A DNA stretch of 35,432 nucleotides from a virus. Lineage: Duplodnaviria > Heunggongvirae > Uroviricota > Caudoviricetes. Below, piece after piece: positions 1,771-29,503 of this stretch (the stretch's first letter is position 1; every line of letters starts with the position of its first letter). The notes beneath the pieces were generated by a model. That model had not been told where the DNA came from, did no database searches, and saw only the letters and a program-made list of their open reading frames with translations. The position numbers and the translations under genes were made by a program. The DNA lies in IMG/VR virus record IMGVR_UViG_2737471826_000010, positions 1 to 35,432 of that record; one strand, given 5' to 3'.

Positions 1771-2355
1771 TTATTGTTTGTTTTTTTCGTTCTGGTTGAT
1801 GACAAATTCAATGTAACTTTCGATCTTTGCTTTCTCGGTTTCGGGTAACAATGCGTAGCGCGAGCGATCATAGTTGATGGTCGCAGGGTCATGCGGATGA
1901 ATCAGTAGTTCATATCCGTGACGCCCGAATGCAGATGCAACATTCTCCAGGGTGGAAATGGAAACGCTGACCTCATTGTTTAACAGGCGGCTTATTGTCA
2001 CCTGGGCGACGCCGGATGCGCGGTGAAGTTTTCCCTGAGTTGAAAGGTCGCGGCTTTCACTCATCCAGCGTTCCAGGTTGTGAGCCGCCAGCTGACCTAT
2101 ATCACTCGGGCCGACAGGCTGAAAACCCTCCTGAGAAAGCGAGCGATCAATATCAAGCCAGTTACGGGGTTTATTGGCGGCAGCTTCAATTTTTCGTGCA
2201 ACCTGGTCGCCGATAACCTTCTTGCCAAGAGCCCAGCGGTTTACCAGATTTGCCTGAGTTCCAAGTTTTTCTGCCATCCGCGTCTGAACACCATTGAATT
2301 CACGGTCGATCAAGTCGTTGAGATTTTGCCTGCGGACGTCCTGGATACTTTTCAT
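1771..2355 (-). CDS. CI-like prophage repressor with two helix-turn-helix regions; no peptidase motif seen
   Basis: 194 aa; N-terminal HTH (QTRMAEKLGTQANLVNRWALGKKVIG) and second HTH-like segment (ASGVAQVTISRLLNNE); divergent from cro across the operator; no GDSM or Ser/Lys autocleavage signature by eye. Confidence 0.65.
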   Translation of the reverse strand: MKSIQDVRRQNLNDLIDREFNGVQTRMAEKLGTQANLVNRWALGKKVIGDQVARKIEAAANKPRNWLDIDRSLSQEGFQPVGPSDIGQLAAHNLERWMSESRDLSTQGKLHRASGVAQVTISRLLNNEVSVSISTLENVASAFGRHGYELLIHPHDPATINYDRSRYALLPETEKAKIESYIEFVINQNEKNKQ

Positions 2356-4704: not shown

Positions 4705-4741
4705 TACCAGCGCGATAGCGCATTTTTTTACGTCTCGATAA

Positions 4742-4756
4742 TTACCTTAGAGGTAA
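4742..4756. promoter_or_regulatory. operator site TTACC-TTAGA-GGTAA
   Basis: Perfect palindrome copy upstream of a candidate promoter (-35 TTGATT, -10 TTTAAT) for the 4822 gene. Confidence 0.55.
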
Positions 4757-4803
4757 TAAAATATTCTAAAATCTATTGATTTCGTGTCTTATGTGGTTTT
4801 TAA

Positions 4804-4818
4804 TTACCTAAGGGGTAA
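4804..4818. promoter_or_regulatory. operator site TTACC-TAAGG-GGTAA
   Basis: Perfect palindrome copy 4 bp upstream of ATG 4822, overlapping its RBS and predicted +1. Confidence 0.55.
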
Positions 4819-4821
4819 ATC

Positions 4822-5169
4822 ATGAGAAAACAGATGCAGGCTCTTGGTCGACTCAAAACAGGCCAGATGAACAAAACAGAATCTGCGTATTGCCAGCACC
4901 TTGAGCTGCGTAAACGTGCAGGAGAAATCGTCTGGTATCGATTTGAGGGTATCAAGCTGCGGTTAGCTGACAACACGTTCTATACGCCAGATTTTGCTGT
5001 GATGCTCGCCACCGGCGAGATGGAACTGCACGAAGTGAAAGGGGGATTCTGGACCGATGACGCCAGAGTGAAAACCAAAGTCGCCGCAGATCAGTATCCG
5101 TTCCGAATCATCGGGGTAACGGTTAAGCCAAAGAAAGCAGGTGGTGGCTGGAACATCGAAGAGTTCTGA
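4822..5169 (+). CDS. DUF1064-type phage protein (PD-(D/E)XK-like)
   Basis: 115 aa; YTPDFAV...ELHEVKGGFW core resembles DUF1064 proteins of lambdoid prophages. Confidence 0.5.
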   Translation: MRKQMQALGRLKTGQMNKTESAYCQHLELRKRAGEIVWYRFEGIKLRLADNTFYTPDFAVMLATGEMELHEVKGGFWTDDARVKTKVAADQYPFRIIGVTVKPKKAGGGWNIEEF

Positions 5170-5230
5170 ATCGACGATCTTTTTAGTTATCAATGTAATC
5201 AATAAGTTATGTGGATAAGCGAGGGTAAAG

Positions 5231-5494
5231 ATGGAAAGTAATATCAAAGGGTTAGTTGCCGCCGGGCATGAGATGGCTTCGGAACTGAAAGCAGAATGTG
5301 GTGCCGTTGATATGCGCAGTGTGGCAAAGCTGATCAGCGATTTGGCAACGCAACTGGAAGTGCAACTGGTGCGTGCTAATGCGCTGGCAGCGGAGAATGC
5401 GGTAATGCTCGAAACTATTGAAGCCGTTCGCAGTGTTGCGGATAACTCCAGTGGAATTGCCGGATGGCATTTGAATGGCGATATCGCTACGTGA
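5231..5494 (+). CDS. hypothetical protein (87 aa)
   Basis: ORF with GAGGG RBS; predicted helical; no recognisable motif. Confidence 0.45.
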   Translation: MESNIKGLVAAGHEMASELKAECGAVDMRSVAKLISDLATQLEVQLVRANALAAENAVMLETIEAVRSVADNSSGIAGWHLNGDIAT

Positions 5495-6516: not shown

Positions 6517-6857
6517 TGGACTATTCACAGTTAAGTGATTTTGAAATTAACAGAATGGTAGGAGACATAATTTTTAAAGGCCTTTGGGCATGTAAACCGG
6601 AAACATCAGGGAATAACACCAACAAATGGTATTACGGAAATACTGATACAACTTTTGAGCCATTAAACCATTTACCTGACTACTGCAATGATCCTAGCGC
6701 CTCATGGCCGATTATTGAGAAACACAGGATTTCTATCTTAGACCAGTTAACTGAATGGTGTGTTGATGCAAAAGGCGTAAGACCAATATTTGATACCAGA
6801 CCTCTCCGCGCCGCCATGATTGTATTTCTCATGATGCAGGAAAATCAGAATGGCTAA
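6513..6857 (+). CDS. hypothetical phage protein (114 aa; possibly DUF2591-type)
   Basis: ORF translationally coupled to both neighbours; family assignment from memory only. Confidence 0.4.
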
Positions 6858-7188
6858 ATCAGCAGCAGAGCGCAAAGCCGCTCAGAGAGCCAGACAAGCT
6901 GCATCTGGTGTGCGTAAGCTGGAAATTGTGCTTGATGCTCAGGAAATTGAAATGCTGGAGCGTAACTGTGCCACGCGTCGCCCCGGGCGTGCGCCTTACG
7001 AATTTGGTGAGTATATAGCGTTACTGATCCGCCAGGATGATGCACGCGTGCGCGGGCGTATAAAATCGATCAGCAGAAAACGTTGCGGTAAGTGCGGCGA
7101 GAGAGTTCCAGTTAATTCATGCCCGTGTAATGGTGACTCGCAATGCTGGGTGACTAAAGGCTGGCATGAAACGAAATTAATAGTGTGA
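6850..7188 (+). CDS. putative DNA-binding regulator: ribbon-helix-helix-like N-terminus plus Cys4 zinc ribbon
   Basis: 112 aa; basic N-terminus, [18 protein letters not shown], then [21 protein letters not shown]; last early gene before terminator and terS; stop codon lies inside the GTGACATGTCAC palindrome. Confidence 0.45.
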
Positions 7189-7196
7189 CATGTCAC
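7185..7196. repeat. 12-bp perfect palindrome GTGACATGTCAC (copy 1)
   Basis: Exact palindrome containing the stop codon of gene 6850..7188; terminator 42 bp downstream. Confidence 0.8.
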
Positions 7197-7237
7197 GAGT
7201 AGATTATGCATGATGAATTTGATGGGTTTTGAATACT

Positions 7238-7263
7238 GCCGCCAACTATGGCGGCTTTATTTT
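7238..7263 (+). terminator. rho-independent terminator between early genes and terS
   Basis: Stem GCCGCC/GGCGGC with 6-nt loop, then TTTATTTT. Confidence 0.6.
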
Positions 7264-7274
7264 GCATGGTATTA

Positions 7275-7289
7275 TTACCACAACGGTAA
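7275..7289. promoter_or_regulatory. operator site TTACC-ACAAC-GGTAA upstream of terS
   Basis: Perfect palindrome copy; a degenerate copy TTACC-ACGGT-GGTTA at 7293..7307 abuts the terS start. Confidence 0.55.
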
Positions 7290-7306
7290 CAATTACCACG
7301 GTGGTT

Positions 7307-7903
7307 ATGATGCCTGCTGAACCTAAAACCTATAAACGCAAATCAACGCAATTTAAGCCGCTCACAGCAATGCAGGAGGCTTATTGCCAGTCATACATCA
7401 AAACGCCTGAAAACCAGACTCAGGCTGCGATTAACGCAGGATTCTCCCCAAATACAGCGGCAGTTAAAGCCAGCGTCATGATGCGCGATGAACGCATTCA
7501 AAAACGGATTGCCGAGTTGATGGAGGAGCGCAACAAACGAATGCGCGTCAGTGCTGATTACGTTCTTATGCGCCTGGTGGAGATCGACCAGATGGACGTG
7601 ATTGATATCCTCAACGACGATGGGAGCCTTAAGCCAATCCGCGAGTGGCCGAAAATCTGGCGCACTACGCTTAGTGGCTTTGATCTGTCATCGACCATCA
7701 TGAACATGAACGAGGATTCGATAGAGACAATCCTCAAAAAAATTAAATGGCCTGACAAGGTGAAGAACCTCGAACTGATTGGTAAGCACGTCGACGTCAA
7801 CGCATTCAAAGAACGCCTGGATGTTAATGTGAATGTGACAATTGCTGATCGCATAGCGGCAGCCAGGAAGCGACTCAAAGAACGTCAGGATGGTAATCAG
7901 TGA
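7307..7903 (+). CDS. terS: terminase small subunit
   Basis: AMQEAYCQSYIKTPENQTQAAINAGFSPNTAAVKAS resembles small-terminase family; start set to ATG 7307 because the track start at 7229 would translate through terminator and operator. Confidence 0.7.
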   Translation: MMPAEPKTYKRKSTQFKPLTAMQEAYCQSYIKTPENQTQAAINAGFSPNTAAVKASVMMRDERIQKRIAELMEERNKRMRVSADYVLMRLVEIDQMDVIDILNDDGSLKPIREWPKIWRTTLSGFDLSSTIMNMNEDSIETILKKIKWPDKVKNLELIGKHVDVNAFKERLDVNVNVTIADRIAAARKRLKERQDGNQ

Positions 7904-9425: not shown

Positions 9426-9446
9426 AGCCAGCTCATCGGCTGGCTG
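9426..9446 (-). terminator. terminator hairpin after moron gene
   Basis: Stem AGCCAGC/GCTGGCT; on the minus strand followed by TTGTTTT; palindrome copy 2 lies between it and the gene stop. Confidence 0.5.
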
Positions 9447-9449
9447 TTT

Positions 9450-9461
9450 GTGACATGTCAC
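9450..9461. repeat. 12-bp perfect palindrome GTGACATGTCAC (copy 2)
   Basis: Exact copy between stop of 9466..9840 and its terminator. Confidence 0.8.
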
Positions 9462-9465
9462 GGTG

Positions 9466-9840
9466 TTATTGCTCGCTTAGCTTCTGCTTCAGCAAGTAAC
9501 CTTCGAGCATCCAGATTTTGTTTACAGCATTCTGCCGGGCAATCTTCCGACCAATTTCTGCATCAAAGTTTTCCGGGCTTGCACAGGCACTCTCTCCGGT
9601 GACGGTGAAGCCATTCTTCAGCACCAGTACGCAGAAAGTGAGAAGGTGCAGAGCATCAGGGGTGGCTTCGACATAAGGCTCCGGATTATAAATAAGGTCA
9701 TCTTCTTTAGCCTGGTGATCACCCTGCGCAGCAGTGAAAAAATGCTCACTGCAAATGAGGCCTTCAATTTTCTCAGGTGTTACACGCGTTGCCGTTTTGC
9801 CTTTCTCAACGATTTCTTTTTCGATTTGCTGGTCGTTCAT
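9466..9840 (-). CDS. hypothetical moron protein (124 aa), co-oriented with tRNA-Arg
   Basis: ATG at 9840 with AAGGTGA RBS; inserted opposite to flanking terL and portal genes. Confidence 0.5.
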   Translation of the reverse strand: MNDQQIEKEIVEKGKTATRVTPEKIEGLICSEHFFTAAQGDHQAKEDDLIYNPEPYVEATPDALHLLTFCVLVLKNGFTVTGESACASPENFDAEIGRKIARQNAVNKIWMLEGYLLKQKLSEQ

Positions 9841-10038: not shown

Positions 10039-10115
10039 TGGCGTGGCATGCAGGATTCGAACCTGCGACCAACCGCTTAGAAGGCGGTTGCTCTGTCCAA
10101 CTGAGCTAATGCCAC
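10039..10115 (-). tRNA. tRNA-Arg (anticodon UCU), argU-like
   Basis: 77 nt; acceptor GTGGCAT/ATGCCAC, D-arm GCTC...GAGC, anticodon stem ACCGC/GCGGT with loop CTTCTAA, T-arm GCAGG-TTCGAAT-CCTGC, encoded CCA; close to E. coli argU with compensatory stem changes. Confidence 0.9.
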
Positions 10116-10763: not shown

Positions 10764-12443
10764 ATGGCGGAAACAACTAAAGAGCGATTGAACAAACAGT
10801 TCGCACAACTTGAAAGCGAGCGTCAATCGTTCGAGCCGCACTGGCGCGAGTTGAGTGATTACATCAACCCGCGTGGTTCCCGCTTTCTGACTTCTGAGGT
10901 CAACCGTAACGATCGACGCAATACACGTATTATTGATTCGACCGGGACTATGGCGGCGCGCACTCTCGCCAGCGGCATGATGTCAGGCATCACAAGCCCC
11001 GCGCGTCCGTGGTTTCGCCTGGCTACGCCAGATCCTGAAATGATGGATTATGGCCCTGTTAAGTTGTGGCTTGAGGCGGTGCAGAACCGCATGAACGATA
11101 TGTTCAATAAGTCGAATCTCTACCAGTCTCTTCCGCAGTTATACGGAAGCCTCGGCACATACAGCACTGGTGCAATGGCGGTGCTGGAGGATGACGAGGA
11201 CATCATTCGCACAATGCCATTCCCGATAGGCAGTTACTACCTGGCTAACTCACCTCGTGGCAGTGTGGACACCTGTTTTCGCAAGTTCTCTATGACTGTT
11301 CGTCAGCTTGTTCAGGAGTTCGGGCTAAATAACGTCAGCGAATCCGTAAAAAGCATGTGGGAAAGCGGCACCTACGAGAAGTGGATTGAAGTGATGCATT
11401 CGGTTTACCCGAACATTGACCGCGATACATCGAAGCTGGATAGCAAGAACAAGCCATTCAAATCGGTTTATTACGAGGTTGGTGGCGATAACGACAAGTT
11501 GTTGCGTGAGTCCGGATTCGATGAGTTTCCAATTATGGCTCCGCGCTGGGAAGTTAACGGCGAAGATGTTTATGGATCATCATGCCCGGGTATGCTGGCG
11601 CTTGGACCTGTTAAGGCATTGCAGCTTCTCCAGAAGCGCAAGTCGCAGTTGATTGATAAAGCCACCAATCCGCCGATGGTTGCTCCGACTTCCCTCAAGA
11701 ATCAGCGCGCCTCCCTTCTTCCTGGCGACATCACGTATATCGATCAGATTACTGGTCAGGATGGTTTCAGGCCTGCTTATCTGGTTAACCCCAGTACAGC
11801 AGATCTGGTAGCAGACATTCAGGACACCCGCCAAATCATTAACAGCGCCTACTTTGTCGATCTGTTCATGATGTTGCAGAACATCAATACCCGCTCGATG
11901 CCTGTTGAAGCGGTGATCGAAATGAAAGAAGAAAAACTTCTGATGTTGGGGCCGGTTCTGGAGCGTCTGAACGACGAATGTCTTAATCCTCTCATTGACC
12001 GCGCTTTCTCGATGATGGTGCGTAAAAACATGCTGCCGCCACCGCCTGACGCGATGGAAGGTATGCCCCTGAAGGTCGAATACATTTCTGTCATGGCTCA
12101 GGCGCAGAAGTCTATCGGCCTGTCCAGTCTGGCGTCTACGGTCAACTTCATTGGTCAACTTGCGCAAGCGAAACCAGAAGCTCTCGACAAACTCAATGTT
12201 GATCAGGCGATCGATGCATTCGCTGATATGTCCGGAGTGTCTCCAACCGTCATTGTTCCGCAGGAACAGGTTGAGCAGGCTCGCCAGCAACGGGCACAGC
12301 AGCAACAGCAGCAACAAATGATGGCGATGGGAATGGCGGCGGCACAGGGCGCCAAGACGCTAAGCGAAGCTAAAACTTCGGATCCGAGTGTTTTGTCAGC
12401 TATGGCGAATGCAGTTAGTGGTCAGGGTGGGCAATCACAATGA
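10764..12443 (+). CDS. portal (head-to-tail connector) protein, T7 gp8-like
   Basis: 559 aa; size, position after terL and Gln-rich C-terminal tail (QARQQRAQQQQQQQMMAMGMAAAQGAK) resemble podovirus connector proteins. Confidence 0.7.
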   Translation: MAETTKERLNKQFAQLESERQSFEPHWRELSDYINPRGSRFLTSEVNRNDRRNTRIIDSTGTMAARTLASGMMSGITSPARPWFRLATPDPEMMDYGPVKLWLEAVQNRMNDMFNKSNLYQSLPQLYGSLGTYSTGAMAVLEDDEDIIRTMPFPIGSYYLANSPRGSVDTCFRKFSMTVRQLVQEFGLNNVSESVKSMWESGTYEKWIEVMHSVYPNIDRDTSKLDSKNKPFKSVYYEVGGDNDKLLRESGFDEFPIMAPRWEVNGEDVYGSSCPGMLALGPVKALQLLQKRKSQLIDKATNPPMVAPTSLKNQRASLLPGDITYIDQITGQDGFRPAYLVNPSTADLVADIQDTRQIINSAYFVDLFMMLQNINTRSMPVEAVIEMKEEKLLMLGPVLERLNDECLNPLIDRAFSMMVRKNMLPPPPDAMEGMPLKVEYISVMAQAQKSIGLSSLASTVNFIGQLAQAKPEALDKLNVDQAIDAFADMSGVSPTVIVPQEQVEQARQQRAQQQQQQQMMAMGMAAAQGAKTLSEAKTSDPSVLSAMANAVSGQGGQSQ

Positions 12444-12736
12444 CAGATTACGAAGATGATCAACTGAAAGAAGAAAACGCCAGTAAGCAACGTGACATGG
12501 CACAGCGTGAAATTGATGACATTCGCTTTGTCATGAGCAGTGAACAGGGGCGTCGCGTTGTCTGGTCTGTGCTGGAGAAAGGCCGGGTGTTTTCCGCTAT
12601 CTCACCGATGGACGCTATGGCAATGGCATTTAATGAGGGGCAACGCAATCTGGCGCTGGAACTGTTTCAGCGCGTTATGGCGCATTGCCCTGAACAGTAT
12701 TTGAAGATGGCCAAAGAGGCCAGTGAACAGGAGTGA
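12440..12736 (+). CDS. hypothetical head-assembly protein (98 aa)
   Basis: ORF overlapping portal stop (ATGA). Confidence 0.45.
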   Translation: MTDYEDDQLKEENASKQRDMAQREIDDIRFVMSSEQGRRVVWSVLEKGRVFSAISPMDAMAMAFNEGQRNLALELFQRVMAHCPEQYLKMAKEASEQE

Positions 12737-26947: not shown

Positions 26948-26959
26948 GTGACATGTCAC
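26948..26959. repeat. 12-bp perfect palindrome GTGACATGTCAC (copy 3)
   Basis: Exact copy 3 bp after the lipoprotein stop and 1 bp before the terminator stem. Confidence 0.8.
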
Positions 26960-26960
26960 A

Positions 26961-26984
26961 GGCCGCTTTCGCGGCCTTGTTTTT
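26961..26984. terminator. terminator between convergent genes
   Basis: Stem GGCCGC/GCGGCC, loop TTTC, then TTGTTTTT on plus strand. Confidence 0.6.
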
Positions 26985-27144
26985 AACGAATGCCACCGCC
27001 GCCTGGGCGGGAATCCGCAGAACGCCCACCGCAGCGGGAGCCGTCAGCAGCAGTGTCGCTGTCGTGCTGACAACGACCAGCAAAGGCCTGAGTTGAAGCT
27101 ACCAGAGACAATAAAACGAACAGTGCAGCAAATGCTTTTTTCAT
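26983..27144 (-). CDS. small secreted peptide (53 aa)
   Basis: Internal ATG at 27144 gives MKKAFAALFVLLSLVASTQAFA signal peptide followed by a 31-aa Gly/Arg-rich mature region with two Cys; weak RBS. Confidence 0.3.
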   Translation of the reverse strand: MKKAFAALFVLLSLVASTQAFAGRCQHDSDTAADGSRCGGRSADSRPGGGGIR

Positions 27145-27225
27145 TGTGAAATTTCCATCTATAAGCCACCTCAATGTGGCGTCAATGAGTGTAGCACTGA
27201 CTTTTGTTTCGTCCATAAAAAACTA

Positions 27226-29206: not shown

Positions 29207-29464
29207 TTATCTGGTTTGTTTTCGTAATTGTTCGGCACAATAGTCGAGATGTGTTTGCAGATCCTGCATAGACATCTGTGAGCTGGTGACGTAGTTAATC
29301 AGTGCAGTCAGTTCGGCAAGTGGGCCATCGACATTAAATCCATCCTTATCGAGATCCCGGAGTAATTTCATCAAGTGCGATCCCTCCACCAGTGACCTGA
29401 CGCCTCCCGGCGTGTGAATCCTTTCGGTAAATCCGTCTTCCAGTGGATAGTGATACCGCTGCAT
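29207..29464 (-). CDS. small antirepressor-domain protein (paralog of Ant C-terminal domain), candidate SOS-induced antirepressor
   Basis: 85 aa from ATG 29464 (GGAGA RBS); IHTPGGVRSLVEGSHLMKLLRDLDKDGFNVDGPLAELT...LQTH aligns with Ant C-terminus IHSPSGVLGLTENSLLMNLLNQLQDDGHDVSGAAAELT...IQTH; LexA box 20 bp upstream. Confidence 0.55.
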   Translation of the reverse strand: MQRYHYPLEDGFTERIHTPGGVRSLVEGSHLMKLLRDLDKDGFNVDGPLAELTALINYVTSSQMSMQDLQTHLDYCAEQLRKQTR

Positions 29465-29483
29465 CTTATCTTCTCCATGCAAT

Positions 29484-29503
29484 AACTGTATAAATATACA
29501 GTA
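29484..29503. promoter_or_regulatory. LexA (SOS) box
   Basis: AACTGTATAAATATACAGTA matches consensus TACTGTATATATATACAGTA at 18 of 20 positions with intact CTGT-N8-ACAG. Confidence 0.7.

Follow-up and report, generated by a model that had tools for sequence, protein, structure and literature searches.

A small ribbon-helix-helix-type phage protein with a Cys-rich module and its probable 12-bp palindromic site at the ends of transcription units in epsilon15-like podophages

RESULTS

The last early gene of an epsilon15-like phage ends in a repeated palindrome

We analyzed a 35,432-nucleotide (nt) stretch of DNA from a Caudoviricetes virus (IMG/VR record IMGVR_UViG_2737471826_000010; hereafter, the window) and focused on the open reading frame (ORF) at 6850..7188, here called the regulator gene, and on the palindrome GTGAC-N2-GTCAC that overlaps its stop codon. 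With the temperate Escherichia coli podophages TL-2011b, ZX5, and phiV10, which are epsilon15-like (Uetakevirus-type), the region shares 94-98% identity. The gene order around the regulator gene is DUF551, NinX, ORF 6850..7188, terS, and terL. The ORF is the final gene of the rightward early operon, and in every epsilon15-like phage seen, the regulator gene is the final early gene directly 5' of terS. A segment with this gene was found in 637 of 5426 complete E. coli genomes, and homologs are encoded by epsilon15-like, P2-like, N15-like, ZF40-like, Vibrio, and Aeromonas phages. The window contains the following features from the regulator gene to terS:

6850..7188, forward strand: regulator gene, ATG start, TGA stop, 112 amino acids
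7185..7196: palindrome copy 1, GTGACATGTCAC, overlapping the regulator TGA stop; proposed cognate operator
7208..7234, forward strand: decayed remnant of a small ORF (ATG CAT GAT GAA TTT GAT GGG TTT TGA), as compared with L066-type loci
7238..7263, forward strand: intrinsic terminator t1, GCCGCC-aactat-GGCGGC followed by TTTATTTT, about -16 kcal/mol
7267..7275, forward strand: candidate extended -10 element for terS, TGgTATTAT, proposed from its conservation
7274..7290: operator of the prophage repressor (Rep), ATTACCACAACGGTAAC, of the form ATTACC-N5-GGTAAT
7292..7308: second Rep operator, ATTACCACGGTGGTTAT, which extends over the ribosome site of terS and into its start codon (ATG at 7307)
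7307..7903, forward strand: terS, Terminase_2 (E 1e-29)

A preliminary description of this DNA, made from its sequence alone, had placed palindrome copy 1, a terminator, and two operators abutting terS here, and all of them are present where it placed them (7185-7196, 7238-7263, and 7274-7308). It had let the regulator feature run to 7308, which includes the intergenic region; the ORF itself ends at 7188.

GTGAC-N2-GTCAC is very probably the regulator's own site

The main new result of this work is a precise 12-bp target for the regulator family. Exact copies of the 12-mer are found at three window positions (7185, 9450, and 26948), compared with a chance expectation of ~0.002 in 35.4 kb. In addition to copy 1, the relevant positions are as follows:

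9450..9461: palindrome copy 2, flanked by the terL terminator and by the stop codon of cargo gene 9466..9840 (reverse strand)
26948..26959: palindrome copy 3, located where the head-tail operon ends and facing the reverse-strand block that starts at a LexA-box promoter near 29486
12492..12503: one-mismatch copy, GTGACATGGCAC, inside ORF 12440..12736

The one-mismatch copy is retained in TL-2011b and phiV10 and absent from epsilon15, and the same variant forms the first site of arrays in P2-like relatives (see below); in the window, it may be a chance occurrence. Epsilon15 carries the exact 12-mer at the same three positions despite diverged flanks. In phiV10, the two internal positions are retained, and the third is not scorable, as the record stops at the regulator stop codon. 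The association extends to distant homologs. In the myovirus ZF40, the 12-mer lies 3 nt past the stop of the homologous gene, and there are three copies altogether; in N15, where the homolog and the window protein share 35% identity, the stop of gene 46 overlaps with the related motif CGTGACTGGTCACG, of which a second identical copy is found elsewhere in the genome; and in Vibrio phage K233, with a homolog of 31% identity, GTGAC(A/G)CGTCAC occurs three times in a fetched stretch of 23.7 kb.

We then took a census of the pattern GTGAC-N0-4-GTCAC in the loci of 113 distinct family proteins from IMG/VR and GenBank, comprising 2.2 Mb. This identified 172 sites, nearly all with a 2-bp spacer, where ~2 would be expected for the N2 spacing (~80-fold enrichment), and a site at the stop of the regulator gene in 69 of the 113 loci. 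In the reverse test, 80 IMG/VR fragments were picked solely for TGTGACATGTCACA; 20 of these encode a family member within the fragment, and in a further 17, the site lies inside an ORF of phrog_2479, a conserved early gene that co-occurs with the regulator family. We note that in phrog_2479, the function of which is unknown, the palindrome encodes the residues T-C-D-M-S; examples, all on the reverse strand, are the following:

L154, 263-508, reverse strand: phrog_2479 ORF with internal palindrome
L102, 316-639, reverse strand: phrog_2479 ORF with internal palindrome
ZF40 (L010), 4919-5407, reverse strand: phrog_2479 ORF with internal palindrome

The central dinucleotide of the site follows the predicted beta-strand of the protein, with AT accompanying RKLEIVLD, GC accompanying LTELRIKLE, and TG accompanying the TTRRDWVLE of N15. 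The GTGAC half-sites, residues R8 and R13, and the basic helix stay constant while the central dinucleotide varies. From these comparisons, in which site and gene are associated in both directions, GTGAC-N2-GTCAC is very probably the regulator's own site.

The regulator is a small basic RHH-type protein with a Cys-rich module

The window protein matches PHROG 536 ("transcriptional regulator") over the full length of the profile (E 1.6e-54; residues 1-111), and homologs are annotated in TL-2011b, phiV10, and epsilon15 (gp49). The record for epsilon15 gp49 notes similarity to N15 gp46, and N15 gene 46 was recovered by tblastn. In RefSeq, members are mostly called hypothetical, and no Pfam family matched the regulator. 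By count from the sequence, the protein is basic (23 K/R versus 13 D/E). A search of 1.8 billion cluster representatives yielded 154 relatives, and 63 diverse full-length members were aligned. In this alignment, R13, C79, C82, and C99 are invariant, and R8, E54, L59, P87, and G95 are nearly so.

The preliminary description had suggested structure prediction as a check. AlphaFold2 run on the 63-member alignment gave a model with a mean predicted local distance difference test score (pLDDT) of 92, in which a basic helix (residues 5-19) is followed by an extended segment (20-29), two helices (30-42 and 52-74), the Cys loop, and a short helix (100-107). The model thus has the strand-helix-helix fold of the ribbon-helix-helix (RHH) superfamily, and the protein can be divided as follows:

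Residues ~5-74: basic N-terminal helix and RHH
C79, C82, C91/C93, and C99: Cys-rich metal module
C terminus: short helix

The fold class is in this way established computationally. The RHH model of YbfE in NCBIfam was matched by 21 of the 63 members (best E 1.5e-5); the window protein itself scored 14 bits against this model (NF008671; E 0.052), below the curated cutoff of 62 bits. E. coli YbfE ("LexA regulated protein") shares the N-terminal arrangement "ERK..QR.R - strand - helix" with the family. Unlike the regulator, it has no Cys module, and its own function is unknown. The single regulator sequence had no match in the PDB, a Foldseek search of the PDB gave nothing significant, and the sole Foldseek match in BFVD was a 46-residue piece of the same family. 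These results bear out the earlier suggestion of a small basic RHH-like protein encoded by the last early gene, and we consider it firmly supported that the regulator is of the RHH type, binds DNA, and carries a metal module.

The earlier assignment of a Cys4 zinc ribbon stands in part. A Cys-rich metal module is present, with five Cys residues in the window protein (C79, C82, C91, C93, and C99). The pattern C79-x2-C82-x16-C99 is not that of a CxxC...CxxC ribbon, and the family's fourth Cys lies in a variable "GC" loop. Weak similarity to the DksA/TraR C4 zinc fingers (F-plasmid TraR, YbiI; PF01258) recurred in several searches. In the PDB sequence set, YbiI and TraR were the only matches of the family profile (E 0.015-0.03); hhalign of the family against a TraR alignment gave a probability of 61% (E 8e-5) over 58 columns and paired C79/C82/C99 with TraR C37/C40/C58; and NCBIfam DksA/TraR models matched 2 of the 63 members (best E 3.2e-4). 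The two groups share C-x2-C-G-x2-[ILV]-P ... G ... C after a long helix. The regulator differs from the DksA/TraR pattern CxxC-x17-CxxC in that it lacks the second CxxC pair and has a residue other than Cys at the fourth TraR Cys position, and neither Pfam nor structure searches of the regulator confirmed the likeness. The resemblance of the Cys module to the DksA/TraR zinc finger is therefore remote, weak but recurrent, and we treat it as a lead and not as family membership. Because the helix before the Cys module is helix B of the RHH, entry of the regulator into the secondary channel of RNA polymerase is unlikely. TraR is not known to bind DNA.

The sites in the window adjoin terminators at the ends of units

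Every palindrome in the window adjoins an intrinsic terminator. A 41-nt spacer separates site 1 from t1, site 2 immediately follows the terL hairpin, and site 3 immediately precedes t3:

9426..9449: hairpin terminator downstream of terL, flanked by an A-tract (left) and a short T-tract (right), which gives it a bidirectional form
26960..26984, forward strand: intrinsic terminator t3, directly after palindrome copy 3

The small-ORF remnant accounts for the spacer between site 1 and t1; many related E. coli prophages carry this ORF intact. Related phages have a small ORF or a LexA-controlled moron inserted between the palindrome and terS. In Klebsiella and Enterobacter epsilon15-like prophages (L091, L099, L106-L134, and others), the insertion between the regulator gene and terS comprises, after the palindrome, TTGACT...TATACT, a LexA box that overlaps it, and a umuD-like gene (8-60 nt past the regulator stop). 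An Rfam search of 6800-7400 returned a match to rseX alone, which, at 27.8 bits and a cutoff of 50, we take as chance.

Copies 2 and 3 are each flanked by convergent units, copy 2 at the end of terS-terL and copy 3 at the end of the head-tail unit. The cargo block that site 2 faces, on the reverse strand from terL to the portal operon, includes a tRNA-Arg gene (anticodon TCT; 10039-10115, reverse strand). Immediately rightward of site 2 (window position 9462 onward), at least five unrelated reverse-strand cargo genes are found among loci L011-L166, each with its stop 4-5 nt from the palindrome, so that the palindrome after terL marks a precise cargo-exchange junction. We considered an H-NS barrier at this position and dropped the idea, since the cargo beside site 2 has a GC content of 47-57% and is not AT-rich. 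On the other side of site 3, a reverse-strand block runs toward it from a perfect LexA box (CTGTATAAATATACAG, 29486-29501), which lies just upstream of the reverse-strand ORF 29207..29482. By analogy with SPC32H, this block is presumably the antirepressor operon, and the LexA box probably controls a leftward SOS-inducible antirepressor operon ending at palindrome 3. Right behind terminator 3 is a small reverse-strand ORF (27000-27145) whose start, MKKAFAALFVLLSLVASTQA, resembles a signal peptide.

In P2-like relatives, an array is located at the end of the early operon, beside variable cargo or a convergent portal operon. It consists of a terminator, GTGACATGgCAC, 33 bp, and GTGACATGTCAC, and several variants have a degenerate third element ~30 bp further. 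Among 153 non-redundant sites, 66 have a terminator-like hairpin within 60 bp, compared with 216 of 2000 random positions (11%).

terS appears to have its own repressor-controlled promoter

The motif ATTACC-N5-GGTAAT has 14 matches in the window versus 0.9 expected, clustered around the repressor gene (1771..2355) and before several units. It is the operator of the prophage repressor; in the epsilon15 record, this motif is marked as a binding site of the repressor at several places, one of them directly before terS. The 12 good copies, between 1636 and 29556, start at the following positions:

1636, 1698, 2410, 2795, 4741, 4803, 7274, 7292, 10437, 28093, 29160, and 29540

Modules of a terminator, one or more operators, and a putative promoter divide the early-right operon at 2765-2811, 4712-4819, and 7238-7308, and further operators are found in front of the portal block (10437) and the tailspike (29540). 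It thus seems that every unit, including the late ones, is shut by the repressor directly.

Upstream of terS, we found no good -35/-10 pair and one weak promoter match (9/12). The absence of a strong sigma-70 promoter before terS, as previously described, holds for such a pair but overlooks the conserved extended -10 element at 7267-7275. Its consensus, TG-n-TA-n-T(AT), is invariant in 111 of 111 related loci (7 sequence variants), in which other positions vary. The element is not part of the operator consensus, and the repressor operators overlap it in all 111 loci. A conserved extended -10 element under repressor operators suggests that terS-terL has its own repressor-controlled promoter; judging from this conservation, the unit would need no activator and would simply be derepressed.

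We also searched for other regulators of late genes. No Q-, N-, or Ogr-like protein was detectable among the early ORFs of the window, and none is annotated in epsilon15 or phiV10, in agreement with the earlier view of a phage without a Q-like antiterminator. Elsewhere, the regulator family and the same site motif coexist with late regulators, namely, Q-like gp40 in N15, Q-like gp25 in ZF40, and a regulator at the ogr position in a P2-like Yersinia phage, which has the family member in addition. This coexistence argues that the family is not in general "the" late activator. N15 (L004) contains a second kind of repeated palindrome, GCGACC-N2-GGTCGC, at 2479, 4930, 10124, and 14561, one of which is located just before an annotated late promoter.

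DISCUSSION

Our data point to a segmented design of epsilon15-like podophages, in which each unit has a terminator and a repressor-controlled promoter and a separate protein binds the boundaries. For the regulator, we tentatively favor the possibility that it is a DNA-bound boundary or termination-reinforcing factor at the ends of units. In this scenario, the distal end of the early-right operon would supply the regulator, which would occupy the few palindromic sites. Bound there, it would act as a roadblock that strengthens the adjacent intrinsic terminators and stops the transcription of one unit from entering the next or a convergent unit; for example, late transcription would be held off the SOS-controlled reverse block that ends at site 3. 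terS-terL would not be activated by the regulator, being read from its own extended -10 element and shut by the prophage repressor via 7274-7308. We base this proposal on the usual occlusive action of RHH proteins, the adjacency of terminators, and the placement of sites at convergent junctions. What we infer here is that the regulator really binds these sites, in which direction it acts, and whether it touches RNA polymerase.

Several observations speak against a boundary function. The ZF40 sites at 5125 and 7622 lie within coding sequence, as do the sites in the "TCDMS" ORFs of phrog_2479, and the sites of N15 and of L066-type loci are 9-13 nt 5' of the next co-directional gene. A single RHH dimer is usually a weak roadblock within a transcribed gene. 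The hairpin enrichment was calculated against random positions and not against intergenic 3' ends; the loci behind the 172 census sites are phylogenetically clustered, so that the counts exceed the number of independent events; and the covariation of dinucleotide and beta-strand amounts to ~5 specificity classes. Finally, no other late regulator is recognizable in epsilon15-like phages, which leaves room for a positive role.

Such a positive role had been put forward in the preliminary description, which proposed a late activator acting on 7197..7306, a role comparable to that of P2 Ogr and P4 Delta, small Cys-containing phage late activators. We consider a positive late regulator unlikely. 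The palindrome-bound protein would either activate the terS promoter or load onto passing RNA polymerase and suppress the adjacent terminators, with the Q-like logic that late units are read from early transcripts. In favor of this, all epsilon15-like phages seen have the regulator gene as their final early gene, immediately 5' of terS, with no Q-like gene found, and the layout is shared with the lambda Q-type antiterminators, for which a gene at the end of the early-right operon is likewise followed by a DNA site and then a terminator before the late genes. However, the regulator has no homology to Q and no match to a Pfam or PHROG antiterminator, and we rejected a Q-like pR'-tR' arrangement because the spacer between palindrome and terminator is a decayed ORF without a conserved promoter. 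Site 1 lies 20-41 nt upstream of the terminator in several lineages with unrelated terminator sequences and site 3 lies directly upstream of its terminator, as expected of such a regulator, while site 2 is downstream of its hairpin in the rightward direction; moreover, the same-operon terminators at 2765-2790 and 4712-4730 and the epsilon15 tailspike terminator have no palindrome. A loading site would suit the intragenic and junction sites in ZF40, N15, and the Vibrio phage, and the C-terminal module weakly resembles the RNA polymerase-binding DksA/TraR zinc finger. As to direct activation, sites 2 and 3 are located at convergent 3' ends beside terminators and not near or upstream of any late promoter, the Ogr_Delta profile (PF04606) had no match in the regulator, whose site and its location are also unlike those of Ogr and Delta, every late unit carries a repressor operator of its own, and a conserved extended -10 element lies before terS. 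The insertions between site 1 and terS in related phages and the coexistence of the family with Q-like or Ogr-like genes also argue against the activator proposed earlier.

We regard as distinctly unlikely that the regulator is an architectural protein comparable to MatP, dimers of which at two or three sites would bridge or mark the phage DNA (by looping, condensation, or interplay of the SMC type) and affect transcription indirectly. The enterobacterial MatP/matS system also consists of an RHH protein and few dispersed sites that are not promoter-linked operators, and the 5-bp half-sites GTGAC...GTCAC are identical. The 2-3 dispersed sites per genome, some of them intragenic, would fit such a protein, and the extra C-terminal module could mediate contacts between dimers. 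MatP has a four-helix bundle and a coiled coil, both of which the regulator lacks, and hhalign with an approximate MatP sequence gave a probability of 1%, so that no significant sequence similarity to MatP was found. The sites differ as well: all window copies are 12 bp with a 2-bp spacer, whereas the matS consensus, GTGACRNYGTCAC, is 13 bp with a 3-bp spacer (PMC3603311). We found nothing that ties the sites to signals for replication or packaging. A role as packaging site was rejected, since a search around the P2-like arrays revealed no P2-type cos motif and since, in ZF40 and N15, a long distance separates the sites from the terminase genes. Less probable still, in our judgment, is that a DNA-tethered relative of DksA/TraR sits on GTGAC-N2-GTCAC, engages the arriving elongation complex via its zinc module, and decides between release and read-through. 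We give very little weight to the possibility that the palindrome is not the regulator's site and is instead a junction left by moron insertion, a linker for recombination, or a site for a host factor that happens to lie beside the gene. The unrelated cargo genes that all end 4-5 nt from the palindrome at site 2 and the P2-like arrays that border a variable cargo hotspot would be accounted for in this way. On the other hand, the motif accompanies the gene family in phages of unrelated types down to 31-35% identity, is ~80-fold enriched even though it is often kilobases from the gene, covaries in its central bases with the beta-strand, and is kept as an exact 12-mer while the flanks diverge.

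A boundary factor of the kind that we tentatively favor would differ from the known RHH repressors (P22 Arc and Mnt, CopG, and the antitoxins TacA, MazE, and ParD). These proteins lack the conserved N-terminal basic helix and the C-terminal Cys-rich module of the regulator and have operator arrays over their own promoters, whereas the regulator is associated with isolated single palindromes at the ends of genes or operons and has no partner toxin. The family had already been catalogued; what is new is the combination of a YbfE-like RHH with a DksA/TraR-like Cys module and the cassette of gene plus site with matS-like half-sites. We found no experimental work on the family in the literature searched, a full-text search for the 12-mer found nothing, and no relevant paper emerged on the combination of RHH and TraR in prophages or on the late genes of Uetakevirus; the paper on ZX5 covers the repressor, antirepressor, and integrase only.

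The 12-bp target makes the regulator directly testable, and its placement bears on how early and late transcription are ordered in epsilon15-like podophages without Q- or N-type factors. If the likeness to DksA/TraR were true, this would to our knowledge be the first case of such a module tethered to specific DNA sites. A regulator that acts as a DNA-tethered DksA/TraR relative would represent a new class of site-specific elongation or termination factor that is widespread in temperate phages of enterobacteria and vibrios, and it could set the timing of late genes in epsilon15-like phages that lack Q.

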